From positions 248,001-312,000 of the forward strand of contig NW_019029003.1 of assembly GCF_002105155.1 (NCBI RefSeq): 64,000 bases of DNA, given 5' to 3'. The translations under genes and the position numbers were made by a program. Shown piece by piece: positions 16,585 to 48,700 of the stretch; the stretch's first letter is position 1, and each line of letters starts with the position of its first letter. Origin of the DNA: Lobosporangium transversale (taxonomy: Eukaryota). The notes beneath the pieces were generated by a model, which searched no databases, was not told the DNA's origin, and was given only the letters and a program-made list of their open reading frames with translations.

Positions 16585-16600
16585 GAATTTTGCGCTGTAC

Positions 16601-22098: not shown

Positions 22099-22362
22099 CC
22101 CCCACCAGCTGCGAAGTTCGGCTCCGCCAAGCCGCAGCTCAAAAAGAAAGAAACTCATTGTGCTGTTTGCGCTTCTACCACCTTGACTCTTGCTACCCCG
22201 CATTTTGGTCATTGCATCATTGTTCTTGTCACCCTTTGGTTCGCCTTGGCATCGACCAAGGAAAATTTTCTTTCTTCGGCCAATCATTTTGATCCGTGAT
22301 CACGCCATTACTTCCACATGATGATGTTGCCATGGACATAAATGTTGGTTCATTCCTCCATT

Positions 22363-22397
<35 letters not shown>

Positions 22398-22461
22398 CTT
22401 TTTTTTTTTTTCATTCGCAACTCCTTCCTCCTTGCCCTGCTTGAACTACTTCATCGTCATC

Positions 22462-23177: not shown

Positions 23178-26100
23178 CTCTCTGTAGGTTCTCAATAAAA
23201 TCATCTTCCCATAATCGTTGCCTTTGAGTTGCGAGCTTGAGGAAGTCTCCATTAATTGTTTCTACCCCATCCTTTGTGCCATAATGCGTTCGACCCGTCT
23301 TGATCCCATATGATCCCTTTTCATTCGCCCAGACTACTTCAAATGGACCTAACCAACGCGGCTCCAGCTTGCGTCCAAAGCCTGTGACGAAATCCAAATT
23401 GAACATGTAAACCCTTGATCCTACTTCGAACGATTGTGGGCGAACACGTCGATCATAGTAACGTTTCATCCTGTCATTGGCATTAAGCTTGCATGAGTAT
23501 GCATACTCACGGATTCCCTCTCTTCTTACGATAAATCTCGCCATGCTTTCTTCTAGGACTACATCGTTCTCTTCCGGTGCCTCTGCTGAAACGAGGAACT
23601 TGTCGTCCGCGAACAGTCGCCGTAACGCTGACTGTCCTGTGTAGCCCATAAGTGCTTCCATTGGCGACACTCCTGTGCTCCTAACGACTCGACAATTCAC
23701 GTCGAATACTGCTTTCGGTAGGAATGCATCCCAATCCTTAGATCCAGCTGGCAGTACTCTCCTCAGTCGCTCCTCGATAAGCTTATTTGTCGCCTCGACC
23801 TGTCCCTGACTTTGCGGATGCCTTGTCGAACCAGTGACGTGCTTGATCCCCCAGAGGTCACAGAAAGTCTTGAATTCGTTACGAAATGCGGGGCCTCCAT
23901 CCGATCTAATCATAACAGGGAGCCCGAACCGACAGATAATCTTCATAAATAGAACAGCTAGGACGCCTTGCGCGCCTTTGTTGGCCACTGCATGTGCTTC
24001 AGTCCACTTGGTGAAGGAATCTGTGAAGACGACTATGGTGGTCATCCCCCTAGGCGTTTCGACTAAGTTCTCAATCAAGTCAACGAAGAGAACTTCAAAT
24101 GGGAACTCGGAGACCGTAGGATGCAACCTGTTATGTTTCACTCGACTTCCAAATTGCTGGCAACGGCCGCAAGACTTGACCCAGTGGAATACATCCCGTC
24201 TCATCGTTGGCCACCAACACACGTCACGAACTGTTGCTAGGGTAGACTCTGCTCCATAGTGACCGCCCTTGTCGTGTGCCTCCTTCAGCACACCTTCGAC
24301 TTCATCCTCAACTACGCACCTCTTCTCTCTGTTGTCGGCATCTCTATACAGTAGGTCACCTTCCTTCGTCAGTCGAAACCTGTATGCCTGTCTCTTGATC
24401 CTCCTCATTTCAACTTTGTCTTCTAACTCCAGTCTCATCTCGGCTAGGTACATGTAGAAGTTCGCGTACCATTGGCTCGCCAGCCACTTTTCTCCTGTGG
24501 ATTCTGCCCTTCGGCTCAGACACTCTGGCACCTCGTCATCGATGTCATCCGTGGCTATTCCTTCCGACATAATGCGACTCATCCCGTCTGCATTGCCGTT
24601 CTTCGTACCTGGTTTGGTCTTAATGACCAGCTCGAATTCCGACAGAATCATCTGCCACCGCGCAGGTCGACCAGTCAGATCAGTCTTGGAAAACAACCAT
24701 TTGAGTGGCGCATGGTCTGTGTAAACGACAACGGACCTACCCAGGATGTAAGGCCGAAACTTCTTGACGGCTATGACAACGGCGAGGCACTCTTGCTCAA
24801 AGGTAGAGTAGTTGCGTTCGGCTCCTTGAAAGGTCTTCGAGTAAAAGTAGACCGGTCTCAACTTACCCTCCTCATCTTCTTGTTCTAGCACTGCGCCCAT
24901 AGCGTATTTGCAGGCGTCACACGAGACCACCCAATCCTTCTCGAAATCTGGAGCCTTAAGTACCGGAGCTTGAATTAACTTGGCTTTGAGACCCTTTACT
25001 GCGGCCACCTGTTCAGGACCCATGGTGAAGCTTGCACCTTTCTTGAGGAGCCTCGTCAGCGGCTCTGCAATCTGAGCGTAGCTTTCGACGAACCTTCGAT
25101 AGTAGCCCGTCAAGCCCAAGAATGCACGTACATCTTCCTTGCTACGTAATGGGGTGAAATTCTTGACCTTGTCAACTTTGTCTGGCATGACCTCAATTCC
25201 ATCTTTGCCGACCACGTGGCCAGTAAACTTCACCTTGTCATACCCGAAATGGAGCTTACTAGTCTTGTACTTGACTCCTCCTGCGCGAGCTGCCGCAAAC
25301 GTATGATCGAGGGCTCTCAAATGCTCTCCCCAGGTCATCGTGCGCACGCACACATCGTCCATGTACGCCTCAAGCACTCTTCCGATAAGGTCTGAGTACA
25401 CTTTTCTAACGAAGCGACTGAAGGTATGTGGCGCGTTCTTGAGCCCAAATGGCATTACCTTGTATGCAAACGTCCCAAAAGGCGTACGGAAGCCAAGATA
25501 CTTGACATGCTCTTTTTTGATGCCAATCACGTAATAACCTTGAAATCCGTCCAGGCTACTGTAGTACTCGAATCCGCCTAAGTTGTCAAGTATTTCCTCG
25601 ATGTTTGGCAGTGGCCAGCTCTCCCTTTCGGTAACCTTATTTAGGCCTATGTATGCGACGCACTTGCGCAAGGATCCGTCTTTCTTAGGAGCAAGACTCA
25701 GCGGCGCGCACCACTCGCTCTCCATCTCTATGATTTTTCCTGCCTTAAGCTCATCATCAACACTCTTCTTAAGGAAGTCAAGCTCCTTCGGCGAGTACCG
25801 TTTGCACCATCCTACGTACACTGGCTTGGCGCCTGGTTGAATGTTGATCTCATGTTCTAAAATAGACGTCACTTCGAGGTCCTCAAGGTTGGTAGTCAGC
25901 CTGTCCTTATTCTTTTCAAGTAACTCCACAATCTGTCCGTATTGCTCATTGGACAAATTTGGGTTGATGTCCACGTTGACTCCGTCAACCGCGAACGGCT
26001 GCCTTTTTACGCGAGCATCGTCATTCTCGCACTGTATCTTGCTAGAGAACACTCTTGCGGTCATCGCCTGCAGATCCGGGTCACCAACCTCTATTGTCTT

Positions 26101-28278
26101 CACTCTCAAGGCTCTGTACCCTGCATCAGCATCGGATTCTTCCGTCTCGTAGATTGATTCGTCATCCTCATAGTCGTCGTACTCATCATCATACTCATCG
26201 CTCTCATCAGACAAGTACGTTGATGTCGTAGGCTGAGGGGTTGAGGCGCGAACATTTAGACCGCCACCAAGGGTGATAGTCCTTCCCTCACTCTCCACGT
26301 AGTACACGATACCGTTGCTCCAATCAGCCTTGGCTTTCAGCGCCTTGAGCCAGTCATCGCCAAGGAGGAAGTCATATGTGCCCTTACAGTCGATCACTCC
26401 CATCGACATTCTCAAGGGGATCCCGGACACATAAATATCGATAGGTCTTGTGCGGCCCGCAAGCTTCTGGAAGGACCCATGGGCTAATAGCACCGCACGA
26501 GTAGCAGGCTCTAACTTCAGTCCGAGTGCGTTTGCCACATGTAGGCCCATCATAGTATGGTCATTGCCTGGATCAATAACGGCGTTGTTGAAGTCTCGTC
26601 CCAAGGCGGTGACGGTCGTGACATCACCCTTGCCACCTTGAACGTTCCTGGCCATAGCTATTGCTGACTGACTCCTCTTAGGCTTGCTTCTTCTTGGAGG
26701 GGCATGGCGGGCCCAGGCCTCGGTAACAGCTGCCTTGAGTTGCACTGCCATCTTTCCACGGTACTTGGAGTGAGTGGCCAAATCAAAATTCAATCCTTCG
26801 ACCGCATCAACGAACACTGGATCAGGAATGACGCGCTTCCTGGTACGCTTTGGCGTCGCATTTGGAGCTTCTGCAACATTATTCTCTCGCCCGTCGACCG
26901 CTCTGTCATCAAAAGTCACTGTCTGGAAGTGGGGGTCCCCAGAAGGTTGCGCACTACTAGTGGATGCCTCAGCCTCCCACTGCATTCCTCGGACAGGTGG
27001 AGTAGTGCCTCTCGTTTCCTCTCTTCGTTGAGACGATGGACCTGCAGGAGTGCCTGTCCTCTCACTGCGACGTCGCTGGGCACCTGTCGAATTTAATCGC
27101 TGTGGCTTAGTCGTGATAAATGATTGGGCGACATTAGTGGCGGAGATTTCTAAACTTTGCACTCTTAGCGAGGAGTTAGTTTGAGTGGCCAATGGGACGC
27201 TATTGGCGCCTGTGGCGGGGCTTCCTTGTTCCTTAGTGCAAACCTTCGAAGTATGGCCTCGCTCGCCACATCGGAAGCATTCCACCAATGGGCAGAACGA
27301 CAAGAGGTGCCCCTCTTGATTACATTTATGGCAGGTTCTACGGGCCATAGGGATAGCCTGCTGACTTCGAACTTCGGCGGGTTGGAGCACGGCATTAGGT
27401 CTAGCCTCCACTCTAATATGCTTGGCCAATTCAGAGGAACCAAACACTCGCCTCGCTACAGCCGGGCTCATTCTTGAGATAGTCTGAGCGATTCGCGCCT
27501 CCGGAGTTCGCTCCTCGGCAGCAAGGGTCCAGGCTCCGAACATGTCTGTTAATTCGTCTACGCTTAATTGATTAACTTTCTCTTTGTCGTCTTTGAAGTC
27601 CGCTAGGAAGCCAGAGTAGTGCGTCCTCGGCACTAGGGTCGATCCAAGCAGAACATTCGTCTCGATTGGTGCAGCATGCTCAGCGTTGCTGCGAGCTATG
27701 ACACGGCTCTCAGTGGTGTCAATGCCCCAACGATTTCCTTCAACCAATTGTGTCACTGATTCGAAGGTTTCCTTCAAGGTCGCAGGCGCTTCTTTGTTCT
27801 TGACCTTGAAAGGATGGTCTTGCCTCAAACCCTTGCAAAATCTGTACGCCAGTAGACGCTCGGTGGCTGTTGGGATCTTGTACGGCTGTGCGTCGCAACC
27901 AGACTCTGGGTCGAGGAGTTCCATGGTAAGTTTCATTCGTTGTACATAGTTGGCTGTCGTCTCATCTTCTCCTTGCTTAATAGAATGCAACTCGTCCAGG
28001 GTGACATCCTGGCTTCTAGGGGTAGAGGCCTCCATGATGAAATCGCTGACGAACTGGCTCCAGGCACCATTCGTCTTGTTTGTCATCCTCCAGCGCCTGA
28101 TCCAGCGTTGGATCTTGCCTGTCGCCTGCCTCTCGACGAACATCAACTTGTTGCTCAGGGTTTCTCCTTCGATAACACCTCCAAAATCGCTGATCCATGT
28201 CGCGGCGGTTAGACCCTCAGCCTCTGCCGACGGCCACTTCGGGATCATGGTAAGAAGAATCGATAAATTGGAAGACAT
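22555..28278 (-). CDS. Gag-Pol polyprotein in a single ORF (Gag, 2 zinc knuckles, protease, RT, RNase H, integrase)
   Basis: CHKCNQEGHLLSFC and CFRCGERGHTSKVC knuckles; AVIDPG protease; LDGFQGY, MPFGLKNAP, YMDD (RT); CDACKYAMGAVL (RNase H); HDKGGH..CGRC, FVDL, SDGG, GQVEATN (integrase). PR-RT-RH-IN order indicates Ty3/gypsy. First ATG at 28278. Confidence 0.96.
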   Translation of the reverse strand: MSSNLSILLTMIPKWPSAEAEGLTAATWISDFGGVIEGETLSNKLMFVERQATGKIQRWIRRWRMTNKTNGAWSQFVSDFIMEASTPRSQDVTLDELHSIKQGEDETTANYVQRMKLTMELLDPESGCDAQPYKIPTATERLLAYRFCKGLRQDHPFKVKNKEAPATLKETFESVTQLVEGNRWGIDTTESRVIARSNAEHAAPIETNVLLGSTLVPRTHYSGFLADFKDDKEKVNQLSVDELTDMFGAWTLAAEERTPEARIAQTISRMSPAVARRVFGSSELAKHIRVEARPNAVLQPAEVRSQQAIPMARRTCHKCNQEGHLLSFCPLVECFRCGERGHTSKVCTKEQGSPATGANSVPLATQTNSSLRVQSLEISATNVAQSFITTKPQRLNSTGAQRRRSERTGTPAGPSSQRREETRGTTPPVRGMQWEAEASTSSAQPSGDPHFQTVTFDDRAVDGRENNVAEAPNATPKRTRKRVIPDPVFVDAVEGLNFDLATHSKYRGKMAVQLKAAVTEAWARHAPPRRSKPKRSQSAIAMARNVQGGKGDVTTVTALGRDFNNAVIDPGNDHTMMGLHVANALGLKLEPATRAVLLAHGSFQKLAGRTRPIDIYVSGIPLRMSMGVIDCKGTYDFLLGDDWLKALKAKADWSNGIVYYVESEGRTITLGGGLNVRASTPQPTTSTYLSDESDEYDDEYDDYEDDESIYETEESDADAGYRALRVKTIEVGDPDLQAMTARVFSSKIQCENDDARVKRQPFAVDGVNVDINPNLSNEQYGQIVELLEKNKDRLTTNLEDLEVTSILEHEINIQPGAKPVYVGWCKRYSPKELDFLKKSVDDELKAGKIIEMESEWCAPLSLAPKKDGSLRKCVAYIGLNKVTERESWPLPNIEEILDNLGGFEYYSSLDGFQGYYVIGIKKEHVKYLGFRTPFGTFAYKVMPFGLKNAPHTFSRFVRKVYSDLIGRVLEAYMDDVCVRTMTWGEHLRALDHTFAAARAGGVKYKTSKLHFGYDKVKFTGHVVGKDGIEVMPDKVDKVKNFTPLRSKEDVRAFLGLTGYYRRFVESYAQIAEPLTRLLKKGASFTMGPEQVAAVKGLKAKLIQAPVLKAPDFEKDWVVSCDACKYAMGAVLEQEDEEGKLRPVYFYSKTFQGAERNYSTFEQECLAVVIAVKKFRPYILGRSVVVYTDHAPLKWLFSKTDLTGRPARWQMILSEFELVIKTKPGTKNGNADGMSRIMSEGIATDDIDDEVPECLSRRAESTGEKWLASQWYANFYMYLAEMRLELEDKVEMRRIKRQAYRFRLTKEGDLLYRDADNREKRCVVEDEVEGVLKEAHDKGGHYGAESTLATVRDVCWWPTMRRDVFHWVKSCGRCQQFGSRVKHNRLHPTVSEFPFEVLFVDLIENLVETPRGMTTIVVFTDSFTKWTEAHAVANKGAQGVLAVLFMKIICRFGLPVMIRSDGGPAFRNEFKTFCDLWGIKHVTGSTRHPQSQGQVEATNKLIEERLRRVLPAGSKDWDAFLPKAVFDVNCRVVRSTGVSPMEALMGYTGQSALRRLFADDKFLVSAEAPEENDVVLEESMARFIVRREGIREYAYSCKLNANDRMKRYYDRRVRPQSFEVGSRVYMFNLDFVTGFGRKLEPRWLGPFEVVWANEKGSYGIKTGRTHYGTKDGVETINGDFLKLATQRQRLWEDDFIENLQRATEKNPHYADTEQPLAPDQLHQPSLGRGREDTANEGTPIQSPHPLSPRTGQAQSRDAPQAQVAPSVNEASREDATGQPSLWRMPPRREEDTSPVRVSQLARLCLERPQLTAYLALERGGNCLGLRRFWRRLLRCKWRNRGRANLVVSKGNHLRRSRRRGSDNDGRSRNNGRSRRRSRSRRSGRGRRSDRRVRSDSRTRLWRRAQRQT

Positions 28279-28315
28279 TGTAGCTGCCACCCCCTGCGTA
28301 GATCACCAGAAATAT

Positions 28316-28679
28316 TGTTGCAAAATTTAGGGGCAGATGTGGTAGGAGATTTAGGTCGTTTTGGTGGATTATGAAGCCGGTCACTTCCAGCTGCAGATAG
28401 ATAAATAATTCTAACACAATAAAAGAACACACACACTACTCAAAGACTGGACGAGAACAGTCAGTACTCAAATGGCTCTTGTGTAAAAATAAGGAACCTT
28501 TAATGATCTATGGCTACTAACGACGAACGTTGTGAGGGCTCTTTACCTGGACGAGAACAGTCAGTACTCAAATGGCTCTTGTGTAAAAATAAGGAACAAG
28601 GAGCCAGATTTTCCTGAGCTGTTGCTCGTTAAATAGTTGGTGGCGAACCCTCTACACGTGACTAAAACTAAAACCAACA
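28316..28679 (-). repeat. 5' LTR (364 bp)
   Basis: Direct repeat of 21735-22098. Confidence 0.96.
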
Positions 28680-33030: not shown

Positions 33031-33157
33031 TTTATTTTCAATTTTATTTTCAATTTTATTTTCAATTTTATTTTCAATTTTATTTTCAATTTTATTTTCA
33101 ATTTTATTTTCAATTTTATTTTCAATTTTATTTTCAATTTTATTTTCAATTTTATTT
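33031..33157. repeat. Tandem repeat (TTTATTTTCAAT) x10
   Basis: Ten 12-bp units following a T-rich tract. Confidence 0.95.
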
Positions 33158-33363
33158 TAATGACACATCTTTTAATATAGTCCATGCCATTAAAAAACGG
33201 GATAGGCCATCTAGACCAAGGATTATTGTAAAAGAACAAGAAATACATAAGTGCTTAGAAATAAGTAAATTAACCAAAGAAAGTATTGTCAAGCCAATAC
33301 TTACAACTTTTCAAGACAGAGGTCTTTTAGAACCAAGTCATATTTGTAGTAGATCAAATCCTA

Positions 33364-36300
33364 TTATTGCTGCCGGCTTGATGTCTTTCCTCCTCTTGGG
33401 AGCAACAAAGGCCCTTTCGATGGTCTTGATCCCTCTATTCCTCCTCCTTCATGTGAATATTTCCTTTTTCTGGTCCCACTACTACTACAACCACCGCTAC
33501 CATCGCTACCACCATCGCTGCCACTACTGCTAGAAGCTTGATCTTGAATTCCTCCATATATTTTGCAGCTCGTTTTTGCAGCCTCACCTGTGACCCACAG
33601 ACCCTTGGAATATTTTCAGCACCAGCAGCAACCCGATCAAAGTATGTTTTACAATTCCGACAGTACTTGTGTCGATAAGGAGCATTCTCCAGTAAAGTAT
33701 CACATTGAGGTGACGGACATTTGGCAGATCTGTAGTATTTGTAACAGCCTAAAATGGAGTAATCTGGAGACTTTGCCTATTCGATCCCGATTGAATACTC
33801 CATATTAAAAAAGACCCATAATTAAATGTCATTGAACATGAGATTCACCTTTTCAACAAGCTTCTTCGTCAATTTCCAATGCTTCGATACTCGCACTCGA
33901 TTAATCTTGAATGATCCAAGTCTAATACAGATCACCGCAATCATATTGGCGCCTCTTGCATTACTTCCACCTACAAGCTTCAGAATTGCCTTGATCACAT
34001 AATCAACGCATCCATCCTGTGCTGTTCTACTGTCCCAGATGCTGCCTAAGTGCATATGAGCATCAATGCCTACATACGTATATAAAGAGGCTGTTTATAA
34101 TCCTTGGCGCTACAGTCTTGGTATATACTACAGCCCATTTAGTATTCTTAATACAGCATGAAAAACCATCCTTGATCCCTGATCTAATCATTGATAAAGA
34201 AAAGATAAAGGCTCTTAGAAAAGAAGGCTATTTCCTATTTAGGGCTAAGAAAAGCTTTGACACAAATAAGAATACCGCCAAGGATAGTTATTGTCCTATG
34301 CCAGAAATGAAAGTGTTTCCAAATATATCGTACAATATCGAAAATCATGGCCTTTTGCTGAACGGCAGATGAGTATTTTCGATGAAACCATAGAATAATG
34401 GTTCACTGACGATGTCATCGCCTTGATCCTAGTGGGCAACGCCCATAATAATATGCTTACGCTCACCGCTAAAAAGGATGAACGGGGTAACGAACCCTAT
34501 GGCGTGTATGCCCTGATCTACGAGCACTAAACAAATATCTTCCGAATGACAGTTATCCTTTACCCTTGATACCTGGTACCATTGCGCGTTTAGCAGGCCA
34601 TTTGATATTTACCACGATTGATCTATCGTAGGCTTACCATCGATTACTTGTCAATACTGACGATCAGCCTCTAGCTGCCTTCATGCACAGAGGAGTACAA
34701 TAAATGTTTAAAAAAGCATCGTTTGGTCTGAAACCCTTGTCTTGTCTTTTCTAGAGGGTCATGTCGCGAATTCTAGGGCCATTTGCCGATAATTTCATTG
34801 ATGATACTGTAGTGTCCTCGACATGCCGAACATGTGCGCATTTGATTGACCGGCTGTACGAAGCCAACTTAATTATAAATCACAACAAGTATCATTCCTA
34901 CAGTACGCAAATTATTGGTTTGCACGGCAGAAGCCCTGATCCTACTAAATTTATAAATACACGTGAGTGAGAAGAGCAAACAATTTTATCTCGGCGCGTT
35001 CAATTTCTACCGAGAGAACATTCCCCTCTTCAGTGAAGTTTCGGCACCATTAGACGCACTTCGCGACCGCACTGACCCTTTTGTATTAAATGGCAAGCAG
35101 CGACAGGCTTTTCAGTCTTTAAAAGAGCTGCTTACTCATACACCGGTAATTATTTCTGGACCTTAGTAAACCCTTCTGCGTGGTAACAGACGCATCCGAT
35201 GTTGGCGTTGGAGCAGTCTTGTACCAGGAATCTCAAAATTAATTATGTACCCTTTATGTGACGCTCTTTCCAAGAGCGAGAGCGGAAATATAGCGCCACT
35301 AGAAAGGAACTATTGGGAATAGTATTTGTGGGGCAGGCATTTTCACCGATATACACATCACCATGCATTGATGTATATCCATTCACAATTAAACTTGAAT
35401 GCAACAATGATCAATTGGCAAGAAACTATTGTTCTTTTACGGCCCATTAGAGGCCTGGAATACTGAATATCTTGCCCAATGCATTGCCACGATTATTCCC
35501 ACCTGCTGTCCTGTTCAAACAGAAAGCTACAAAAGGATAGGACATAGCTATAGCATATATGCATATCTTACAGAATAAAGAGGCCTCAAGGACAAATTGC
35601 TCATGGAAAAGAGAAATAATATATCGCATAATGTACATGCAATGAGCCACATTGGCATAGATTCCATGATAAAATCCATCCATAATCGAGATAAAACCTG
35701 GCTAAAGCTTGCTGAGGATTGCTCGAACTTCATTAAAAGATGTCGTGAATGCTAACGAATGAATATTTCTAGAAAAGGGTATCATCTTAAAACGATCCAT
35801 GCTCAGCTACCAGGAGAACACATGGCAATTGATCTTGCAGGTCCATTCGTTGAGCCTGAGGATAAAATTTTTTACTTGTCCTCGTAAATGTCTGCACAGG
35901 ATTTGTTTTGCTGGATGTAATCCCTGACAAAGCAGCTTACACCGCAGCGAAAACACTATTCAAGTGTCATGCAGTATTTGTCCAAATAGAAAGGCTATGA
36001 GCTATGAGCATTCCGATAACAAAAAAGAACATTTTATTGAGAGACAATGCATAAGCGAGTATTGGGTAGACTTCTATGCCAAGTGCAAGCCTTCTATCGA
36101 TAAACCAACTAATCCTTCCATGCGACGTACTCGTACGCGCAAACAACGATAATCATGTACAGAATAGCATACGACGACAACACCTAACATCAATAGAATA
36201 AACACGATAAGTATAATAGCCATCAATAATAATAAAGCAAACGAATCTTTATCGCGGAACTCTATGCGTTGCGCATGTATTCCTGCAGGAGTTCGTTGGT

Positions 36301-38308
36301 TTTCTGCGTACTCTCCGAAGAAAGCTCTATTGCTTCAGACACCATCTTCAAAGTATTGGCATTCTTGGCTGCAGTTTCTGCTTGCAGTTTAACTATATCT
36401 AACAGTATTTGAGTATTCGAAGGTTGAATGGCTTGTGAGCCTCTACTTCTTTTTTGGTTTGATGTATCATAGGCAAGAAGAGTAAGGGTAAGGCCATTTG
36501 TGAGGAATGATGTTCGTAGTTTCCTCCTAGGGCCAGTATCATCAGATTGCAGTCCAACGTCCTTGTATCCTTTCAAGGAAAACAGCTCTTGCAACAATAT
36601 CCCTTTGTCATTAAGAAGCTTGTCCTCTGCAACCCCCTTGGTACTCATATTTAATTCCAACAATTGGACTATTTCCTCTCGAACTGTAGGGTTAGACCAT
36701 AATATATCCAGGAGGCAGGCTTCCGTTAAGCAGAGAGACCGAGGCGAGAAAGCGGATGTAGGGAAATCCAGATATTTTTTGGCAGTAGCATTTTGCTCAA
36801 AAAAGAATTGGATGGAACTTCTTCCATCGTCTGGAATATCTATGTCAAACTAAATATTATATTGAAGAAATGATTAGGAACATTTCTATGAACGTATTAT
36901 AAGATAACTTCAAAATATGATATTTACCTGCGCATTCCGATAGTGAGACCTTAGCGCTGTTTGAACAGGGACCATGACCATCCGAGACGACTTGCCGATC
37001 ACCAAATCGGGATAGATCTGGTTTAAAGGACCAAGTCCTGTTTTTGCATAGAAGTATTCGTATACTTTGAGCTGGGACGGCTTGACTACATTCCCTTCGC
37101 CTTTTTTCTTCACATCCTAGATAATGGATTCATCAGTCCGTGATACAACAACGCAGCAAGGCCGTAAATAAAGTCCTTGCTATCAAGAACTTCATCTAGG
37201 GGTTGTGGGAGATCAGCTGGATTGGATGGCCCAGTGGTAAGAAGGCTATCGATCCAAAAGGCGCAGGCCCAGAAAGCTCGAATCCGTGCCTCATTCAACA
37301 TTTTGATAAATGGTTGAATGAGCCCTTGAATTGTAGCAGCAAGTTGCTCGGAATTGAGATTGGGATCGGAAGTAGAGTTCAACTTGGCAACTATATACAT
37401 CTTTAACGTGCCCAGAGTTAATGCAACAGTGGATCCTCGGTAGTAGTATCCTTCACTTTCCTGGTTTTATCAGTCTTTCTGATATACTTGGCCTTCCCTT
37501 TGTTCTTCTTTTTTTTCTTCTTTTCCTCCTTAACCTCCTCTTCTTTCTCATCCTCTTTCTTTTCCTTTTTTTTCTTGGGCTTTCTTTGATGGTCGGAGCT
37601 GACGGGACAGTTATGTTATTTACAGTTGGTTAGGTCATATTTTTTGGGGAAGAGTTCTCTTTTCTCAGTAGGGAAAACGGGTAGGTAGTGATCCGGCTTT
37701 GCGCGTTTAGGTTTAAAGAATCTAGTTACGAAGCAATAATGTCAAGTAGATGGCTTTTTTTTTTGTATATGCCTTGAAAAATGTTCGTTTGTAGGAGCTT
37801 ACCTGGGTTGAGGTTGGTACTTAGCGGATATCGCTGCCAAGGTCCTGTCATGGTAATGAAGGAACCTTTCAGCGGTTGGTTGTTTCAAAGCCTGCGTTTG
37901 AATCCCACCGAAGAAAATATTGATTGAATGGACAAATTGGCCTTCTGACTTGGTCTTCATGTTGGCTATGAGTGTATCGAGCTTTGCATCGGCTATTGTA
38001 CGCTTAACGTCTCGGGCTCTATAAGCGCGGACTTTTTCATTGGAGCGAGGCTCATCAATGTGTATCGCCACTATGGTAAGAGGACCAAAGATCTTTAGAA
38101 TGATATTAGCCATAGCATGGTCACAGACAGTGAAAGAACTCGGCTGGTTGAGTTTCCTTAGGATGATATTGTGTATATCGCAGTGGAAAGTGCCAAGCAG
38201 ATCCAACTCAAAAGATGAATCGGGTTCGGCAGCAAGCTCATGTACATCAATCTCCTTTGGTAGCAGATCTCTCCTTGAAAGGTATGAATAGAGACCTTCT
38301 ATACCCAC
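33364..38308 (-). pseudogene. Decayed Fanzor1/TnpB-like RuvC-zinc-finger gene with XPG/PIN-like N-terminus, interrupted by a gypsy relic
   Basis: N-terminus (V/M)GIEGLYSYL..ELDLLGTF..IHIDEPRSNEK. Middle: ALTLGTL, LTEACLLDILW, RTSFLTNGLTLTLLAYD. C-terminus: WDSRTAQ..LKLVGGS..VICIRLGSF, intron 33777-33848, then GCYKYYRSAKCPSPQC..KYCRNCKTYFDRVAAGAENI, read as a degenerate E-Y-x-TS-x-CP..C..CxxC..RD-xxx-A-x-NI. RuvC-I segment not found. Confidence 0.72.
34150..35990 (+). pseudogene. Degenerate Ty3/gypsy pol fragment (RT, RNase H, integrase start)
   Basis: FTTIDLS*AYHR, SFGLKP, NFIDD, FYLGAFNFYR, VTDASDVGVGAVLYQ, YSATRKELLGIVF, HMAIDLAGPF. Many stops and frameshifts; no LTR pair seen; boundaries approximate. 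Confidence 0.85.
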
Positions 38309-38911
38309 CTTGAGAAAGTATACTATAAAACAGTGCAAGCAATGTTAGTTTATGCAACGATAGATTGAAGTCGAAGTTGTTTGAGCAGATATGGTTTACT
38401 TTTAAGTAAAGATTGTAATCTGTGAGAGTGTGAGGATGTAGGAGTATGAGGTGAGAGGATAGGAGGGTGAGAGATAAATGTCGTTGTATCAGCGTGAAAT
38501 GAGAGAGAGAAAAGAAGAAAGAGAGAGGGGCAGGGTGTATTTGTAGGTGTATGAAAGAGAGCAAAACAAAAGGCTGAGCAGCAATGCAATTCGGATCGCA
38601 TTAAAAAAAAAACAACGGAGAAACAATTATTTGACTACCAACAAGTTGCAAGGTGCGCAAAGAAGTGGAAAAAAGATGTGCACTGGAGACAGAAAAAAAA
38701 ATCGCTTCCTTCCTTATTCCTTCGCCGATTCCTTCTTTCTTAACGATCTCTATATCCTTTTCCCCTCGTTCAGGGATGTTAATAGCCTCTCACTCTTCAA
38801 TTCTTCAATAACATTTACTCATTGTTTCTCAATCAAAACATCCTTAACATTTCAACATTACATTTGCAATCTAAACTTAAAAGATTCAATTCTTTCACAC
38901 GAAACATGAAC

Positions 38912-41900
38912 ATGGTAAAACCATATCCGCCAAAGCAGAGATGAATTATTTGTGGGGATGATGACGAAGAAGAGGCAGCCATCGCGAATTCTCAACCTCT
39001 ATCCTTGCCAAAACAGACGCGACTTGATCGCGAGAAAGAGAGCGATAAATGGACTGCTATTGTAAAGTTTCCGCCTTCATTGCCAGAGTTAGAGTCACCC
39101 CCTATTACAACCAGAACAGGCTCTGCCGGTACCAAAAAAACGTGGTCGCCTCCGAAAGATAGAATCAACACATGCACCACGTCGACAAAGCCATACCACT
39201 CCGCCAGTAGCCCTAGAAAGACAACCTAAAAAGTTACTCTTATTACAAGGTTTGCCACAGGAACCGCCTAATTCAAAGGAGTCATTGTGCACGTGTCTCA
39301 ACTATCCAACCTCTATCCATGCCACAGCCACCACTGCTACAGGAGGTAGACGACATTGTTGGCTCATCTTCTGAGAACGTCGTCAACAGAGAGCTAGACG
39401 ATCCAATCGATCAGGAGAAAGATGACATTGTCGAGTCGGAGCCTGGCTTCTATTCTATTATTATTTTAATACTCTAACCCTGTTCCGTAATTTTACTTTT
39501 TTTTTTTTTTTTTTTTTTTTTCTGCTAGATATTCTGCAACAAGCATTTCAAGCCTGAAGATGAACGTGATGATCCTGAGGAGGCAAATACACCGCTTGAG
39601 TTTTTATTCATAGAAAAGTCCTTAGTCGCTCCAGAGCATTCGGTTCCTTTCATGAAAGAGGAATGTGATAGAAAGTTGACGAAACATGTCGTGGAAGGGC
39701 AAACTGTCTGAGCTCAAATTGACATTACAAATAAGGCGGAGAAGGACGATAAAAGTACTTCATCATTGAGAGACGGTAAGCTAGTGGTTTACTTTTGAAG
39801 CGCTCAAACTACACACCTAGACACTTAGGACTTGGTGCATATTGGTGCTCACATCCACGCTTTTTATTTCATTTTATTTGTTTTGGTGAAGTCCTCGCCA
39901 CTGAGGCCTTAGACCTAGAAGGACGCAGGGTTATTGAGGTGCCTGTATCTAATTCTCTGCCTCAAGCTGCCTTGGATACGATCACAGACCTTTAGAGAGT
40001 CCAAGCTAGCAAAGGATGGATTACCTGTTGCTCCCCGCGTGAAAACATGGATATAGCGATTATGCTAAAAAATTATAGATTTAGCCTTGTATATGATCAG
40101 TTACAGCCAGATCTCACCCGGCGAGTGGACTGTCCATTGAGAAATGCCTATAGTCCCAAACAATTTGTCCAAATGCTGATGACACTCTGGCGCGATCCAA
40201 TCGGACTTAATAGAAGAAGCGCCAATATTAGGGATCACTTCTCTATGGCAATTCATCATCAAATGATGCTTCGTGATGAAGACATCCGTCACCTTCGGTT
40301 CTCTGAGTGTTTCCACAAAACACTTGATGGTCCTCAGACGGCTTACCGAAAGATATCCAGCTTGATATTTCGTATACAGCAAGGAGAAGCTAATAAGAGC
40401 GGTGCAAGCTGGTACTCTTGTGCTGTCCGACATGTTGATGTTTGACAGTGCGGTTTCTCAGCATTTGCGTTTTACATGTTTTATCTTTGGCAGTCGAAGT
40501 TCAGGTTGGACAAAGCAATGCTTCCAAACTTTGACGATCCAGATTGGACCCAGTTCCACGTCCTTGCAAGCCGTACCGATCCAAAGTATGGGGTTTCCTC
40601 TAGTACTCAGATAGGTGCTGTCAAGCGGTTGTACGATAAGGTTGGCTTTACATCAACCAAAAAACTCATAGCGGGCGGCATGCCGGATCAATGCATGCGC
40701 AGGCGCATGGCGCATCTTACAAGGGCACCTATGCAGGTGGAAGGGCTTCGAGGCAAAATCAAGTGGATATAAGCTATTTGGCAAAAATCCCAGTTAGATG
40801 TGCTTTAGTTATGGCTGGCCTTAAAGACAAAGACAACACTCTAACGCGCAACAAAGTAAGCCCTTCGATCGAACTACAGCGTAACAAAGTAAGCCCTTCG
40901 GTCGAACTACAGTGCCTTATCTTCCCATGGATCGAGAAGGCCTATGGCAAACCCGGAACAGAATCCTGGAAATTTTGGCAAAGGGAATGTGAGGATGAAA
41001 TGGCAGAAGTTGATGAGAACGAGGTGAAAGCTGTAGAGAGGATGAGCATCCCTCTGGAGGAAGAGGCTATAGCTTCAAGTGGAAAACGAAAGAAGAAAAA
41101 GGCGGAAGCTACAGTGGGTCAGCAACGGGGAAACAAAGTCGCTCTTCCGAACACTGAAATCCCAGACTCTTTGGAGCCAGTTGACGAACAAGAGCAACAG
41201 CAAGAGAAAGAGCCTGCATCTGCCTCAGCTACTGACACCCGTTGCATGTATAGTACCAAGGACGTTTATAAGCGCTTATTCCTCAAGCTATTAGTCCGTT
41301 GCCGAAGGATAATATCGCAGGATGCAGCTGCGCTATTGTATTATGGTCAAAAAAAACTGCCTCCTCAAAAGCGAAGTATTTCAGACTCGATTCTTTGGGG
41401 ATTTTGCCAAAGAAGTAGTTGAGGTTCTTAAAAAGAAAGAGGAGGTTGATCCTCTGCAGCAATGTGAAGCAGCCATGTCAATAATTGCAAGTGAACTTCG
41501 ATCCATAAAAGAGACGACATTTGCTGACGAGCTGCTATCACCAAGGGAATCCATAGATAATTTTGGCGATCAACTGCAGGAAAGAAATACATGACCTTTG
41601 TAAAACTTTATCAAAAAACGCACAGCAAGGATCATATGAATCCAGGAGTCCCAATTGCCGCACACTATCCCCCTCATCCTCAGCAACAACTTAGTGTCCA
41701 ACCATATATCCAACCATCGTTTCAATCACCTCTCCAACTGCCTCCTCATCCATTATATTATCAGCCAGCAACGTATTCATATCCGTATCAAATGCCAATA
41801 CCTGGATCTTCTTCATCGTATCTGAGGCCATCTCTAAGCTCCAGGAACTCTATCAGATCCTACTTCATGGTAGAGCCAAAGTCAAGGAAGCCAAGGACGC

Positions 41901-42090
41901 GGGAGAGGAAGAGTGCAATGCCAACTACCTTTGGAGCAACAGCAGAAGCAGCAACCAAGAAAGCTACCTCTACCCCCGCTACCAAACCTACAGCACCGCT
42001 TTCGACTGGATTGACAGGTAACTTATTTCTGTTGTATGAATGAATGGTTTGGTATAATAGGGAAGCGATTACCGACCCGTTGCGATTGGC
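38912..42090 (+). pseudogene. Crypton-type (NDC10-II-like) tyrosine recombinase, decayed
   Basis: HHQMMLRDEDIR (catalytic Arg region); QGEANKSG..RHVDV*QCGFSAFAFY (stop 40443-40445); KTHSGRHAG (HxxR, in a shifted frame near 40660-40690); SYLAKIP..MAG (candidate Tyr); PSVELQCLIFPWIE; FLKLLVRCRRIISQDAA. Ends approximate. Confidence 0.78.
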
Positions 42091-42786
42091 AACCATTTCA
42101 TATGATGCTTTTACTCTTTTTTTTTTTTTATTTAACGGAGATCCATGAATTAAAATAAATATATTTTCCTTTCGTCCTCGTTACCTGTAATGACTTTGGC
42201 ATATTTCACAGTCAAAGGTGAGACTGAGTAGAAGTAGAGCGCGTTGTGTATGTGTTTAAAACACATACATAAAAAAAAGGATAGAAGAATGAAAAGTAAA
42301 AGACAATAAAAAATAAAAATAAAAAGTAAGAGTTAATAGACAATAGGCATAAGGAATAAGAGTGAGAATGAACAGGCCAGGGATGTGTTTGACAGGGAGT
42401 CTGATTAATGTCATTTCAATTGAATTAACCATGAAATTGTTTAATTTTCGCTGCGCGATCCTTCCAAGAAAGCGATTTCCGGTGATAGTTGTAAAATACA
42501 ATCATCTTATTGGCTCTAGTTTTATAATAGGGATTATCTTGAATGGACATTAAACGCATGTATTCAGGCCCCGTGGCTTTTTTTGTAAAGCCTACTAAGC
42601 ACACAGCCACGAATCCTTACGACGCGTTAGGCTCGTCACCAGTCTGTATGGCTTATGTGCATTACACTAACCCTCACTGATAGGCTGGATCCAAACTCCA
42701 AAAGGACCTTTGCTGAGTCCAGGATGAAGAGAGACAAGCCGACAGTAGCAATAGGATTTAATTTACTAGAAATATGAAACCACTCG

Positions 42787-45700
42787 AGATTTACTAGTAT
42801 CATTCATGTAAATACAGCCACGCAATATGCCCCTTGTGCTTAAGAACCATAAAGGACTCAGTTTTGTTCATACACTGTAGGTTTATTTGTTGCTTTTGCT
42901 CATGTCATTCAAGTATTTAAATTTCATAGTTCAGCCGTCGTTCCTTCAGTGTCCATCATATTTTCGTCGTCACCACCTACTTTCTGGTTTCTAGTTAGTT
43001 TCTTCGTAAGTGGATCTGCTCCTCCAGGAATAAAGTCTCCTAAAGTCAATGCGATACTCTGACCACCGGAGCCTGCTTCACACAACTCGTCAGCCAACGC
43101 TATATACCGCGCCTCTAGGGCCTTGACATCTTCGGCCTCTGCCAAAACCTTGCCTGCAAACCTTAGCACCACCTGACCCATCCATTTCTTCAAGAACAAA
43201 GCTGTCATTTTCTCAATCATCTGAGCCTCACGCTGACCTTCAATCCGAGCCTCTTCACGGACCTCATGCAATAAATATTCGGCCATGTCCAGAGCCAGAG
43301 ACAGAGGCGGAGCCCAGATATAGGTGAAATCATCCGCACCTGGCTCTCGAGCTACATTGAAGGCCGCCGCTAACTGTGTTGCTGCTTTCTCAGCCGTTAA
43401 TGTAGCTCCTGGTGCTGTCAGTGCCAGTCGCATAAACTCGAGACACACAAACGGACGCATCAGCACAAACTTGGCCTTCCCAGCAAGAGTCTCAACCGCA
43501 CTTGCACGGTAACCTTCAAGAAGAGCCGGCGATACACTCTTCTGTGCATTGGCTTGGACAGCTATTTGACCACCCATCAGTTCAGATATAGTCAAAAGAA
43601 CAATGAGAGAGAGAGAGAGAGAGTAAAGAATGAATGTTAGATTTGCAGGCTTCTCTCCAGTTATGTGAGTCAAGAAAAGAGAAATGTAGTGGGACTGAGG
43701 GGATAAGAGGGAGAGAGGTAAAGATAGAGATAGAGATGCAGAGAGAGGGCCAAATCCTTCAAGACTAACCTTGGTCCAGCTTCTTCAAGTATTCAGAGCT
43801 GCCTACAGTTTTTTCCCAGTAAGCATCCAGCTCCTTAAGTGTCTTCGGGTTATTGTTGAGGTGCTCTACCTCCATTGCCAAATCCGAATTGCCTCGGAAT
43901 GGAAACCATTGGCCACGAGCGATATTCAAAGGGAGGTCTTGTGGCTGCATGAATGGAGTCAGATCCAGAGCATCCAGGCTGCCATTCAGGAAGGCTTCGA
44001 GGATTAAGACGCTTGCTGGTGAAATGCCATAGCCGCTACTGAACGCCTCAGATCCACTTCCCATGCCTGTAGTATTCCCTAAGGCAATGGCTTGAGGTCC
44101 AAATTCAACAAGTTCATCAAGAGGCTTGCGTGTAGATATACTAACAGGGATTGTGCCTCTTTCGATATCGATTACAAGGAGCTCATGAAGCATTGGGCCG
44201 ACTTCTTTGGGGAAAGCGGCACACATCAAAGAAGTATCAGCTAACAGCATACGGTGGACAATAGCAGTGTCTGGCCCGTTCTTTCCTGCTGTTTGCGCTC
44301 GCTGAACCAATGTTGAAAACGCTTCTTGCATAGATGTGATTTGCTCCATCGTCAACTGGCCATTATTTGCTTCACGCACAAGAGCTAGCTCACCTAGGAG
44401 GATAGTTGAGATCATATCTCGTTTCATTGAATAGAAGCTGGTATTCTCTGCAGTCGCCAGTCGATCCATAAATGCAGTAATCTCCTTCAGCGGAAAGACC
44501 CCAATGGCATTCGTCAGAATATGCAAGGCGACAAGGTCTCCATGAACCCAGTCGGCCAATTCTTCGCTAGGCTCCATGAGAGCCTTACCAAGAGTTCTCT
44601 TGAGCTCTGCGTTACTCCACCCCTTGGGAAGGAGCGACAATGTAATCCACGAAAGGATAATAGCTTCATTATTTATAGATAGGAACCTATTGCTCAAGTT
44701 GGCCATACGTATAAGCAATCGAAGGACCTCTTGGTTAATCTGTGCTTGCGTCATATTTTCCTGAGGGTTAAACAGTGCAATCTCTCTTCCCAAGATTGTC
44801 ACCCATAAAACCGATTCCATTCCTTGAGAGAGAAGGGGGCGAACTGGATCCATTTCATCGCCGGTGAAGGCACCAGCCTTCTTAGCAGCATCAGAATTAT
44901 AAAGTGTAAAGTTGGCGCTCAAATGAAGGCTTTCAATCCGATCGAGCACTAGGTTGCGGAAGCCACGTCGTCGGCTCTTGTCTAGGAATACGTCCACTTG
45001 ATCCTGTATATAACCAATGAGCTCTTCCCAGCATTTGTTACCGTTGTTATTTTTGATATTGGCCTTGCTGCTATCGTCACCGACTTGAGCGTTCGCTAAT
45101 TTACCTGCAATCTCCACGCTACTGCAGCGAGCGATACCAAGAGCAAATAGCCTCCAAAGTGAATATGGGTCATCATCTAGGGGTACCTTGGCCGCTTCTT
45201 GCCGCCATTCTTTAGCAAAGTGTAAAGCATACTTGAAGGTTATCCACCCACTCTCCTGAGCAAGCATTTGCAACGTCAGGACTCTGACTTCAATTAGATC
45301 TTTGTCCCTTGCACTGTCGCCTTCAGGAACAGCAGTCATAGGGATAAGGATATCGCTGACATAACGATCGATAATACGTTCAGGGACGGTTTCCTTGGAC
45401 AAAGCCCCCAATGCTGTGTTAATACAAGGAGTACGGTGAATACAGCCAGAGTCCACAAAAGGGACAGGTAATGGTTTGCTGTAGTTGTATGAAGGGGACA
45501 CTGCAAGAAGGACCAATGCAACCCCTGATTTTTTATGATAGGTAGACTGAGCGACAGTAGATAAAGTAGTCCAGATCCACTCTGTGGTGGCTTTATAGCG
45601 CTCCTCTCTGCCTTCTGATCCGGTAAGTAAGCGAATCAGTGATTGCAAGGTAACCACTCTGACATCTTGATGGAGGTCCCGACGTGCTAACAGATCCTCA

Positions 45701-48700
45701 ATCAGCGAGCTGACTTTTGGATCCACCAGCAGAGACATACTCGACAGTACCAAACGAATGCCTTCCTTCTGAACAGTGACCTTTTGTTGGCGCTGTCCAG
45801 AGGATGGGAAAAGCGGTATGATAAAGTCAGGGATTTGCTGAACAGGGACACACTTGAGCGCATTCTCAACTGCATGAATGGATGTACGAGCGACATGAGA
45901 TTGAAGGTAGACTGGAGCCATGAGGAGCTGAAGTGTGCTTGCGGGTTCTCCCAGGGTCGGAAGGAACATCAGCAATGCCTCGACAATGCGTGATGGTAAA
46001 GATGGAGTGGTCAGAGCATTGGCAACATCTTCCACTGTTGTTGTCGACATACTCATAAAGGCCTTAGCATGCTGAACACGGGATTGGAATGGAGTCGAGC
46101 TGTTGGTCATTCCTGACAAGTGTCTGGCCTTGAGCATCTCACTTTGCTGTGGGTTTAGCTCAAAGGGGATCTTCACAAATAAAAGGTCCCATGGATCTGG
46201 GGTCTCTATTTGATTGAATAGTCCAGGAATACTCTTGGTCATCGACAGATGGTCATTTGTCAAAAGATCCGGCCGCTGTGCGCAAACATAATCTAGGACA
46301 GCAGGGAGGTGAATAGCTGATGGAGATTTGTTCAAGAGTCCGACCATGAGTTGCTCGTATCGATTATGGTCACGCTTGCCGCCTGGGAACACACACTCAT
46401 TCACACGTGCCTTTACTTCCCCTTCATATGCAGTTGATCCTAATCGAAGATCGCGGTACAGTGTGTACCATGACAGATTGCCAAGATTCTTTTGAACCCA
46501 CTCTTCCTGTGTATAGATCTCACGTACATGCTGGATATAGTTCGATGAACTTGATAGGAACTCGTCGTCTTTCCAGTTTAGGACAGTATCCTTTCCGAAT
46601 ACTAAAGTCGGAGCACTTGCTAGGACATCCAAGGTCTCATGCAGATACTCCACAAGCGTCGGTGAATTCTTCCATCGCCATCCTAGATCATCATGAAGGC
46701 TATAGCAAATGTTTTGCCAGAAGATCTTTTGGGACGACTTGAACGCTTCAACAGAGTCACTTGTAATATCTGGGGCCATTAGTGCCTTCACAGTGAGCCA
46801 GCGGCTATGGTAAGCATTGATCTTGGCCTGCACATATGTCTCCTCCTGTCCTTCTTCGATAAGGTGTAGACCCCATGCACCACCCTCAGTTTTGTATGTC
46901 TCATTTTCTTTGGCAATTGCCTTTCGTCTAGCAATCTCATGTTGCTCATTGCGTTCATGGACATCCTGGCCGTAAGTAGGGTTGCTAAAGGACAGGTCAA
47001 AGTACTTAAAAGCATTTACATCGCCATGGACATTAACCACTCGTCGCCAGCGGATCTCTGTTCCCATTTGGAAGAATGGGTGAGAGTCATTGTTTGCGAA
47101 GCGCGAAAGAGCGGCATCGCCAATAGAGTCCAAAAACCTTGTAATCTGTGAAACTGGTGTGATAGCAGCCGAATTCTAATAAAGTTGATGGTGTTAGAAA
47201 GACATATATGTCATTTCCTTGCTCAAGGATATTGCTATCTTTTCTTTCCCTTCTTTCCTGCAAAAGAAAAAGAAATATGAAATATGTGCTGTTACCTGTG
47301 CGTCCATGGCGAGGTACAATGCGGATAGCTCATTAGCTTGCTGCAGATCTGCGTCATCTAGGTATTGCCTCGGGATAATATGGTCGCGTAGGAACAGACT
47401 TGGCGCAAAAGCCATGAGGTTGGGCTGAATTTCATTGCGGATCCTTTGCGATGATAAGGTTTCCAAAAATAAAAATTAAAAAAAAACGGGTTACAGGTTA
47501 GAAAAAACCAGGAGCACATAAAGGTTTAGTTCATCATAGCTTGGAAGACTGAGACTATGTAACTCACTTGGGAATCAGCCATTTCAGTGTTATGAGCCAT
47601 TGGTTCACATCTTTTGTCATACGAGTTGCTTTCATAATAGCAGTAAGCCATTTAAGACGATCCTCAAAAGACGGCTTGGTCGTTTCCTTGACAAGCTGGG
47701 CCCGTACTTCTGGGACTTGGATATCGACAAAAGATGCCCAGTTGGATAGGTTGTCACCCAAATCCACTACTTTCTCTCTCCTGTCATAGAACACAAGTGG
47801 ACGGACGATCTGTTGACGGAGTTCAGCATTGGTGCAGAGAGCCTCCAACATCGGGTATACAGATACGCCTTGGTCCTTCTCGATCAAAGGCTTAAAACTG
47901 GGTAGTGCAATGATCCATTGGACTACCTCATCGCGCTGAGCTTGTGTCAAGCTTGGGCCCAGCTTGCTAAAGTGCTCGATCCATGTAGAGTCCAGCTGAA
48001 TCATTGCTTTTCCTGTCCTATTCAGGCAGTTAGCGACACAAGTCTGGAACACAGCAGAGTTGTCCCAAGAGGGAACAGAACTAAAGGGTTGCACAAAGGC
48101 GTCATCAGATAGAGCATAGACGCTTTTATCTGAAGGTGCAAGGACAGCCAAGAGATCTTCAACTATGGAGATTACAGCACTATCCTTGCGTGTCTTGGTT
48201 TTGAACATTGGCTGGAGCTGATCGAAGATAGTTTCAGCCAGTGGAGGGAAGCGCTTTATATGTGACAGTTTGTGAGCTTCCCAGTAGTTGGAGGACTGTC
48301 GAAACAATGGATTGAATATCTTCCTGCAAAGACGAACATTGACCGCATCATCATCCACATCTTGGATACGGAGAGCTTCCAAGGCAGGAGAGAAAAGCTC
48401 TGGGATGAGCTCTCGTAATGTCTGGTGGAACTTCTGAGTTGAATCAACACGATCCTTGTGTACAGAGCAGTTGACGACACGATGCACCAGGTTGTCTACA
48501 CCTTTCACCACGAACTTGAGCACATTATTCAGACGCCTCACCCGTTGGTTGCCTTGTGTTTTAGAGCGAATCTTGAACTCATCTTGTTCAAGTACTTTCA
48601 AGGCAGCGCGTACCAGCCGAGTGACAGCAGGGCCGCGGAGGCAACTGAACAGCTGAGGGATTTGGTCCTTCTTGAGGAGTTCTCCTTGACCAACATTGAT

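Follow-up and report, generated by a model that had tools for sequence, protein, structure and literature searches.

The 64,000-nucleotide window analysed here (Lobosporangium transversale, NW_019029003.1 positions 248,001-312,000; coordinates below are window positions) carries on its minus strand, from 38308 to 33364, the remnant of a Fanzor-type gene, for which comparison with paralogues and the window sequence itself give four exons and three canonical introns. The window copy is a pseudogene, unable to encode either of the two nucleases that the gene once specified. In its intact relatives, a nuclease head of the FEN1/EXO1/XPG type and a C-terminal Fanzor1 are confirmed, from sequence comparison and a structure model, to lie within one predicted open reading frame. 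The gene region is laid out as follows.

37803..38308, minus strand: exon 1, remnant of a FEN1/XPG-type (PIN) nuclease head, aligned to relatives
37722..37802, minus strand: intron 1, 81 nucleotides, GTAAGC..CTAG, phase 2
36928..37721, minus strand: exon 2, Lys/Glu-rich linker and beginning of the Fanzor body
36850..36927, minus strand: intron 2, 78 nucleotides, phase 0; the junction NAQ/FDID is continuous in P0092 and XP_021884711
36410..36849, minus strand: exon 3, 5' part, Fanzor body containing SFLTNGLTL
34100..36400 (ends approximate), plus strand: decayed Ty3/gypsy pol relic (Pfam RT_RNaseH_2 2e-7, Integrase_H2C2 1.5e-5)
33849..34052, minus strand: exon 3, 3' part, RuvC region past the gap (WDSRTAQ..KLVEK)
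33777..33848, minus strand: intron 3, 72 nucleotides, phase 0
33364..33776, minus strand: exon 4, RuvC-II, C4 zinc finger, RuvC-III and an S/G-rich basic tail
33211..33304, minus strand: putative GT-AG intron within the 3' untranslated region (UTR), 94 nucleotides, recognised by sequence only

This gene structure bears out an earlier sequence-only reading of the locus, which had joined minus-strand fragments through GT-AG introns into a single gene. The three introns are canonical and the exons collinear with relatives, the quoted peptides all lie where that reading placed them, and the S/G-rich RKRK tail that it read in a shifted frame is in frame in the paralogues P0049 and P0102. When a four-sequence family profile was run against the whole window, six matches (E 2e-11 to 1.5e-19) fell in domain order inside the gene region, compared with a best E of 0.82 elsewhere, indicating that the gene-region matches are not due to chance; exon 4 matches the family profile at E 1.7e-14. 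The pieces of exon 2 are 76% and 75% identical to pieces of P0049 and have an unbroken counterpart in XP_021884711. The 5' part of exon 3 is 94% identical to P0049 over 96 residues and 66% to P0092 over 146, and its 3' part is 69-72% identical to P0049, P0102 and P0108. Exon 1 retains the equivalents of D36, D85, K92 and R99, that is, two acids of the head together with its K and R.

The lesions that make the window copy a pseudogene affect both nucleases. The start codon is GTG (38308-38306), where paralogues have Met, and an in-frame deletion of ~167 codons at 37946/37945 has removed the FEN core with its EAD, DSD and NDY motifs, so that the alignment of the head to P0001 jumps from residue 121 to residue 289 (96/121 identical over residues 1-121, and 34/43 over the next 43, which match P0001 289-331). 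Further downstream, across the whole window the RuvC-I profile matches only its last third (positions 131-183), and the gypsy relic occupies the gap left in place of the acidic linker and RuvC-I. The RuvC-II codon 33740-33738 is AAA (K) where paralogues read GCHEYYTSAKCP, codon 33731-33729 is AGA (R) in place of the T of TS, and the RuvC-III codon 33632-33630 is GTT (V) where relatives read RD; the zinc finger is kept, and all three RuvC acids are lost or changed. The E-to-K and D-to-V changes, the loss of RuvC-I at the gypsy insertion and the deletion of the PIN core had been called correctly from the letters, and to that list are added a stop codon (37618-37616) and three frameshifts, located near 37430, 37115 and 33555.

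The closest relatives lie in L. transversale itself. Exon 1 matches P0001, a 341-residue 'PIN domain-like' model of this species, and a quick tree of PIN heads places the window head as the sister of P0001 (99), the tree being midpoint-rooted and the window row only 39% filled. Of the 13 members of the P0001 cluster, 12 are 341 residues long, are 96-100% identical and lie on at least 11 L. transversale contigs, which points to recent spread. All 12 full-length models end in QPQPR, and in the window this end is a splice donor (AG/GTAAGC) at which read-through gives Arg followed by a stop. P0049, also from L. transversale, starts in that exon end and continues through the linker, RuvC-I (GIDPG), RuvC-II (GCHEYYTSAKCP) and the S/G-rich tail, and the window pieces are 71-94% identical to it. 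Since the end of the PIN model is an unspliced intron donor, we infer that annotation divides such L. transversale genes at intron 1. For XP_021884711.1, the 400 residues shown track the middle of the window gene closely.

Beyond this species, the window pieces map in order onto P0015, P0016 and P0017 as well as onto the L. transversale paralogues, and the intact Mortierellaceae proteins are 1,100-1,300 residues long. In P0017 (Podila verticillata, 1,260 residues) and P0018 (Mortierella alpina, 1,135 residues), a PIN-like head and Pfam Cas12f1-like_TNB stand in one predicted protein; the latter model is above its cut-off in P0017 (6e-8), P0018, P0054, P0025 and P0172. At E<=0.001 a four-sequence two-domain profile retrieved 1,670 cluster representatives, 150 of them listed, and both parts are found in 32/32 stored proteins of at least 950 residues, a count biased by the two-domain query. 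Among 20 relatives looked up, those with a named taxon belong to the Mortierellaceae (Lobosporangium, Entomortierella, Dissophora, Mortierella, Linnemannia, Actinomortierella, Haplosporangium). Two-domain proteins of 1,004-1,302 residues also occur on ENA, JGI and Logan assembly contigs of only 3.9-5.5 kb, which leave little or no room for introns and are consistent with single open frames. Database auto-names hint at the head, with one entry called 'Rad2 nuclease' and one '5'-3' exonuclease'. As an observation apart, P0069, P0081, P0098, P0104 and P0127 form a separate, well-supported branch of both-domain proteins, and the three of these that were looked up come from environmental assemblies with 4-5.5 kb contigs.

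Structural comparison supports both halves of the fusion, with the fold evidence coming from a model of the relative P0054 and not from the window copy. In sequence searches, P0001 matches XPG and FEN1 chains by phmmer (best E 4.9e-4) and Atlas XPG_I/XPG_N clusters at 0.95, its nearest neighbours there being mostly Nucleocytoviricota proteins, and a seven-sequence family profile run against the PDB finds FEN1 (5.6e-4), EXO1 and Cas12f/TnpB chains (6e-3). The head scores below the curated Pfam cut-offs (XPG_I 13-14 bits against 24.9; XPG_I_2 18.6 against 24.2). The P0054 model, built from a 119-row alignment (mean predicted local distance difference test score 81), has a long helix at 90-122 and a helical module past residue 230, in keeping with a PIN core that has a helical arch and an H2TH/H3TH module. 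In Foldseek it matches FEN1 (2.1e-10) and EXO1 (6.1e-10) over 350-380 columns with template modelling (TM) scores by target of ~0.6, and SpuFz (4.8e-9, 786 columns), PpFz and GtFz over 779-876 columns (E 4.8e-9 to 2.8e-7). The Fanzor matches have TM scores by target of 0.35-0.50 and a root mean square deviation of ~20 A, indicating that the domain arrangement of the model differs from that of the Fanzor structures. Fold matches in BFVD are separate flap endonucleases or separate Fanzor-like proteins, with TM by query never above 0.29, and a collection of viral contigs, which gave no relative by profile or by motif, shows no sign of the fusion.

The catalytic residues of both nucleases are conserved in alignment A4, which is an earlier alignment minus about 20 misplaced or partial rows and plus six long proteins. 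Conserved rows for the seven FEN acids number 40/40, 45/46, 44/47, 47/48 (counting D or E), 48/50, 48/49 and 48/48 (94-100%), and for the gateway K and R 44/44 each; these acids are equated with FEN1 active-site residues, and the motifs are visible in the alignments of the family profile with FEN1 and EXO1. The RuvC acids are kept in 68/70 (D), 61/62 (E) and 61/63 (D) rows (97-98%), the count for the RuvC-II E being inflated because loci were picked on the RuvC-II motif. Twelve of 30 long relatives keep all ten acids, seven from FEN and the RuvC D-E-D, and most of the others are gapped at one end. The sequence-only reading had thought that intact paralogues might exist elsewhere; its proposal of a Fanzor fused to a structure-specific nuclease is upheld by the intact homologues P0017, P0018, P0021, P0054 and others, which have both parts and all catalytic residues, while RNA guidance and splicing are predicted by comparison.

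Metagenome contigs provide a further view of the pairing, one that begins from the Fanzor end of the gene. Scanning with the RuvC-II motif alone gave 66 loci, 65 of them with Fanzor matches, in 44 clusters; L057 has no RuvC match and was dropped from the counts as a false motif match. With a head profile built without the motif-picked loci, a head was found on the same strand, ~3.3-3.9 kb upstream, in 18/20 loci having at least 3.8 kb of upstream DNA, or in 11/13 clusters. Spliced alignment of 11 copies placed introns at 264-267 (phase 1), 332-347 (phase 2) and 1048 (phase 0) in 11/11, with a stop-free spliced frame in 10/11. Introns 1 and 3 of the window correspond in place and phase to the second and last of these, and are thus matched in all 11 copies. 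Separately, the FEN head of L012 groups with the larger clade in a quick tree while its RuvC end resembles the window subfamily, a hint of module swapping.

Several of the sister-clade genes sit in defined elements. L001, L013 and L026 share a 7.46-kb unit with 25-bp terminal inverted repeats (TIRs), in which the fusion gene stands head-to-head with a MULE-like gene, and four contigs share the right end of this unit and then diverge. L008, L040 and L062 share a 5.57-kb unit with 28-29-bp TIRs that holds only the 3' half of the MULE-like gene. Pieces of the MULE-like gene give SWIM above its cut-off in 3/4. Two loci, L014 (1-1745) and L050 (1-1132), have upstream open frames other than the MULE-like gene, L050 also having, on the same strand, a stretch that looks like a Cys/His finger. 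That the FEN head might act as the transposase was considered and set aside, several elements carrying a MULE-like gene; we know of no FEN-type transposase.

In the stretch that separates the stop codon from the right end, the sister-clade elements have a conserved segment of 110-170 nucleotides that is absent from the left ends inspected. A TGACGT motif occurs in 42 of the 57 loci whose downstream DNA is long enough, a count that includes redundant loci, and in 19 chosen sequences a 6-bp hairpin shows compensatory changes at 4/6 pairs together with G-U pairs; it is 95.7% paired, a value reached by 0/500 shuffles in a control that ignores kinship. Searches with three loci gave no Rfam match for the segment. 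We regard it as a candidate omega-RNA with the flank as guide. The segment was not found at the window copy, so this candidate belongs to the sister clade only, and by sequence the window copy belongs to a subfamily other than the MULE-linked clade. After its own stop, the window copy has a TT/GTAAGT donor that is also present in L012 and L024, which with it make up all three copies with the window-type RuvC end. If an omega-RNA spans this intron-like segment of the 3' UTR, the guide scaffold could be spliced.

Fanzor1 (SpuFz1 of Spizellomyces punctatus, PDB 8gkh/9cey; PpFz, 9cf0; GtFz, 9cer) shares with the fusion family a common fold over ~780 columns and the order D..E(alt)-TS-C4 finger-RD. 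P0054 carries the published Fanzor1 motif, D-x(125-275)-[TS][TS]-x-x-C4 finger-x(5-50)-RD (Bao and Jurka 2013, PMC3627910), as D847, TS 1064-1065, four Cys and RD 1096-1097. The rearranged RuvC-II glutamate (Ealt) described just upstream of the Fanzor zinc finger (Yoon 2023) is present as E-x-x-TS-x-x-C in P0017, P0054, P0049, P0102 and P0025, and reads K in the window copy. DPG at RuvC-I, near exclusive in Fanzors (Yoon 2023), occurs in the window's nearest relatives P0049, P0092, P0015 and P0017 and in 19/71 A4 rows; DLG, typical of the larger clade, occurs in 38/71, and the region is deleted in the window. Short TIRs and a conserved segment between stop and right end are also common to Fanzor1 and the sister clade, the segment lying in the same place as the SpuFz1 omega-RNA (Saito 2023, PMC10432273). 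In contrast to Fanzor1, with Fanzor lengths of 400-700 residues (Saito 2023), the fusion family is about twice as long, a 330-residue FEN-type head together with a basic linker and an acidic insert making up the difference, favours DLG over DPG and has 3-4 introns.

The head likewise has known counterparts. FEN1, EXO1 and XPG, members of the FEN-like PIN group that includes giant-virus flap endonucleases and poxvirus G5 and combines a PIN core with a helical arch and an H2TH/H3TH module (Matelska 2017, PMC5499597), share with it the fold, seven acidic residues, the gateway K and R and a G-x-D-Y-like H2TH motif, whereas the head scores below Pfam XPG cut-offs, is fused to Fanzor and is multi-copy. 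Among mobile elements, the nearest are Fanzor1 elements of Mucorales (ROr-4, PBl-3, MCi-4; MCi-2A; PMC3627910), in which Fanzor1 lies inside MuDR-like TIRs or next to part of a Crypton gene and in which the proteins are also long (1,245 and 1,375 residues). The MuDR-type elements there encode no transposase, whereas L001/L026 and L032 carry one head-to-head, and the N-terminal parts of MCi-2 and MCi-4 that were examined have no FEN motifs by eye.

Relatives of the window gene have been published as Fanzors: P0017, P0054 and XP_021884711.1 (834 residues, L. transversale) are FZ1 in the supplementary tree table of Saito 2023 (PMC10432273), and many rows of Table S2 of Yoon 2023 are PIN-headed Mortierellaceae proteins. 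In Saito 2023, 'XPG', 'fused' and 'fusion' are absent from the main text, and 'XPG', 'FEN1' and 'flap' from the supplements searched, one scanned file excepted; 'XPG' is absent from the supplements of Yoon 2023 that were searched. The supplement of Jiang 2023 gave no match by text, and its image fig. S1B, on extra domains, may bear on novelty. No FEN–Fanzor fusion appears in portions of the Matelska 2017 classification, nor is one discussed in the openly accessible Fanzor, TnpB and PIN literature searched. The suggestion that the architecture was uncharacterised holds for the head so far as the text searched goes, where it is unremarked, whereas the proteins were already tabulated as Fanzor1. 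Neither that tabulation nor the TIR transposons that carry relatives had been recognised by the sequence-only reading. The pairing may extend beyond fungi: XP_004989849.1 (Salpingoeca rosetta, 1,534 residues), a Fanzor hidden Markov model match in Yoon Table S2, has EAD-, DSD- and GCD-like motifs by eye in its first 400 residues.

Our preferred explanation, to which we give a little better than an even chance, is that the FEN–Fanzor pair serves transposon retention, with a guided cut of the empty donor site, trimming of the ends and copying back of the element. By analogy with known Fanzors and TnpB, the Fanzor part would cut the vacated donor (excision) site under omega-RNA guidance. The tethered FEN1/EXO1-type 5' nuclease, a step with no direct precedent, would then resect or de-flap the guided break, and the trimmed 5' ends would steer repair to homologous copying of the element over end joining. 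Cutting of donor joints by TnpB favours retention (Meers et al., bioRxiv 10.1101/2023.03.14.532601), and the same role has been raised as a possibility for Fanzor, whose biological role was called unknown (Saito 2023, PMC10432273). The IS200/IS605 TnpB of Meers et al. shares the proposed guided cutting of the empty donor site; it is bacterial and lacks a second nuclease domain, and the retention role demonstrated there is only presumed for the fusion family. A wider claim, that these proteins form a fungal clade, widely distributed and active until recently, of dual-nuclease OMEGA (obligate mobile element-guided activity) effectors on MuDR-like and possibly Crypton-like elements, which both make the break and dictate its homologous repair, is tentative and falls somewhat short of even likelihood.

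The alternative that survives best accepts the fusion and has the FEN domain act elsewhere, trimming flaps or gaps of transposition or processing the omega-RNA 5' end from the mRNA. FEN-like nucleases include the RNA cutters herpesvirus vhs and XRN (Matelska 2017, PMC5499597), vhs- and XRN-named viral proteins are among the fold matches, and the head is retained beside different transposases or none. However, DNA-bound FEN1 and EXO1 give the best fold matches, and no variation is seen at the gateway K/R pair. In addition, the hosts already possess FEN1 and EXO1, so under this alternative the tethering to Fanzor needs explaining, and we consider it unlikely.

Clearly less probable still is that the window subfamily makes two separate proteins, or that unspliced message mainly yields a free 341-residue flap nuclease, with the fusion minor or mispredicted. 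The uniform QPQPR ending closes a complete domain, with a stop at the donor, and XP_021884711 starts separately. Yet it is the GTAAG donor itself that supplies the stop at that end, the PIN/Fanzor junction is spanned in the same species by P0049 and P0002, the junction intron recurs at the same place and phase in 11/11 other copies, and the long both-domain proteins come from contigs of 3.9-5.5 kb. Separate genes for the PIN-like and RuvC-like parts, which the sequence-only reading had named as a refutation of the fusion, are seen only in a RefSeq split, and P0049 splices the PIN end onto the Fanzor. Host takeover as a guided defence or genome-maintenance nuclease, no longer selfish, is very improbable: copies sharing only 20-40% identity do retain the catalytic residues, but the many near-identical dispersed copies, the decayed copies, the TIRs with variable flanks and the transposase partner speak against it.

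Several observations weigh against the fused, retention-serving nuclease that we favour. The long two-domain proteins are gene predictions throughout, and RefSeq splits L. transversale copies into the 341-residue PIN model XP_021884712 and the 834-residue Fanzor model XP_021884711, with consecutive accessions. Fusion, guide RNA, cutting and the substrate of the FEN head are predictions from sequence and modelled fold. Seven pieces of the window gene, searched alone against Pfam, gave no XPG/PIN or TnpB model at E<=1, so the domain assignment of the window copy rests on relatives. Two of the 20 long metagenome loci, L036 and L046, lack a head, and the spliced-alignment script was free to place introns, one near 600-640 being not fixed. 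As for the elements, the MULE-like gene has Pfam MULE matches that stay below the cut-off, with E values of 6e-4 and 1e-3 from single exons, and accompanies only 5/11 head-bearing clusters; of the others, three have at least 900 nucleotides of upstream DNA without it and three have less than 560. Six contigs with both ends show no target-site duplication, multi-copy short-read assemblies being likely to mix flanks. The window copy has no MULE match, its 3' non-coding DNA has no match among the 66 loci, and its 3' end folds no better than shuffles (z 0.71, -0.12, 0.29).

The window copy, as a pseudogene, serves only as a pointer to an intact, mobile family of multi-copy, apparently autonomous elements in culturable soil fungi, with transposase, Fanzor, defined ends and a candidate omega-RNA. 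In such elements the retention or homing idea is directly testable, and the second active site offers a handle on break repair. If the proposal is correct, dual-nuclease OMEGA effectors would amount to a programmable homing drive that occurs naturally in eukaryotes, and would provide a ready-made template for editors that favour homology-directed repair or long deletions. Engineered nuclease-exonuclease fusions parallel this natural fusion of a Fanzor with a FEN1/EXO1-type nuclease.

The surroundings of the window gene include a possible mover, listed here with the sequences that may bound the element.

39996..41419 (may span ~38890-42040), plus strand: Crypton-like gene for a tyrosine recombinase, broken, in head-to-head orientation to the fusion gene; frames seen
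33338..33433, minus strand: last 70 nucleotides of the fusion open reading frame and 26 more, repeated inverted at 42686-42777
42686..42777, plus strand: inverted partial copy of the gene's 3' end, either the far element end or a remnant of another copy

The Crypton-like gene has recombinase-like motifs, and one of the five pieces scanned matches Pfam NDC10_II at E 0.0024, below cut-off. The 95-bp inverted pair (aligning locally with a score of 86, where 200 shuffles reached at most 45) flanks both genes and may represent the TIRs of one 9.4-kb element, although Cryptons have not been described with TIRs (Bao and Jurka 2013, PMC3627910) and no clean duplication flanks the pair in the window. 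A Fanzor1 element with a partial Crypton gene is described in Mucor (Bao and Jurka 2013), and Crypton is among the Fanzor-linked transposons of Jiang 2023. The Crypton-like neighbour is thus a candidate mover of the window copy, a linkage that a single locus cannot establish.

Elsewhere in the window, a 7.2-kb segment is duplicated at 2949-10168 and 42787-50012 in the same orientation with 98.5% identity, the second copy beginning 10 nucleotides past the inverted 3'-end fragment. An apparently intact Ty3/gypsy element at 21731-28679 has a 1,915-residue minus-strand frame (22555-28302) and 368-bp repeats of 99.7% identity. Inverted repeats of 1.05 kb (10365-11416 and 16598-17650, 99%), unusually long for TIRs, enclose a gene at 13599-16584 that by eye we take to be DDE-transposase-like with a Tc1/pogo look, and fragments at 19492-21295 presumably derive from a Helitron Rep/PIF1 helicase, again a label given by eye. 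Directly downstream of the fusion gene, a tandem array of a 12-bp unit (~11 copies, 33031-33158) runs into an A-rich tract.

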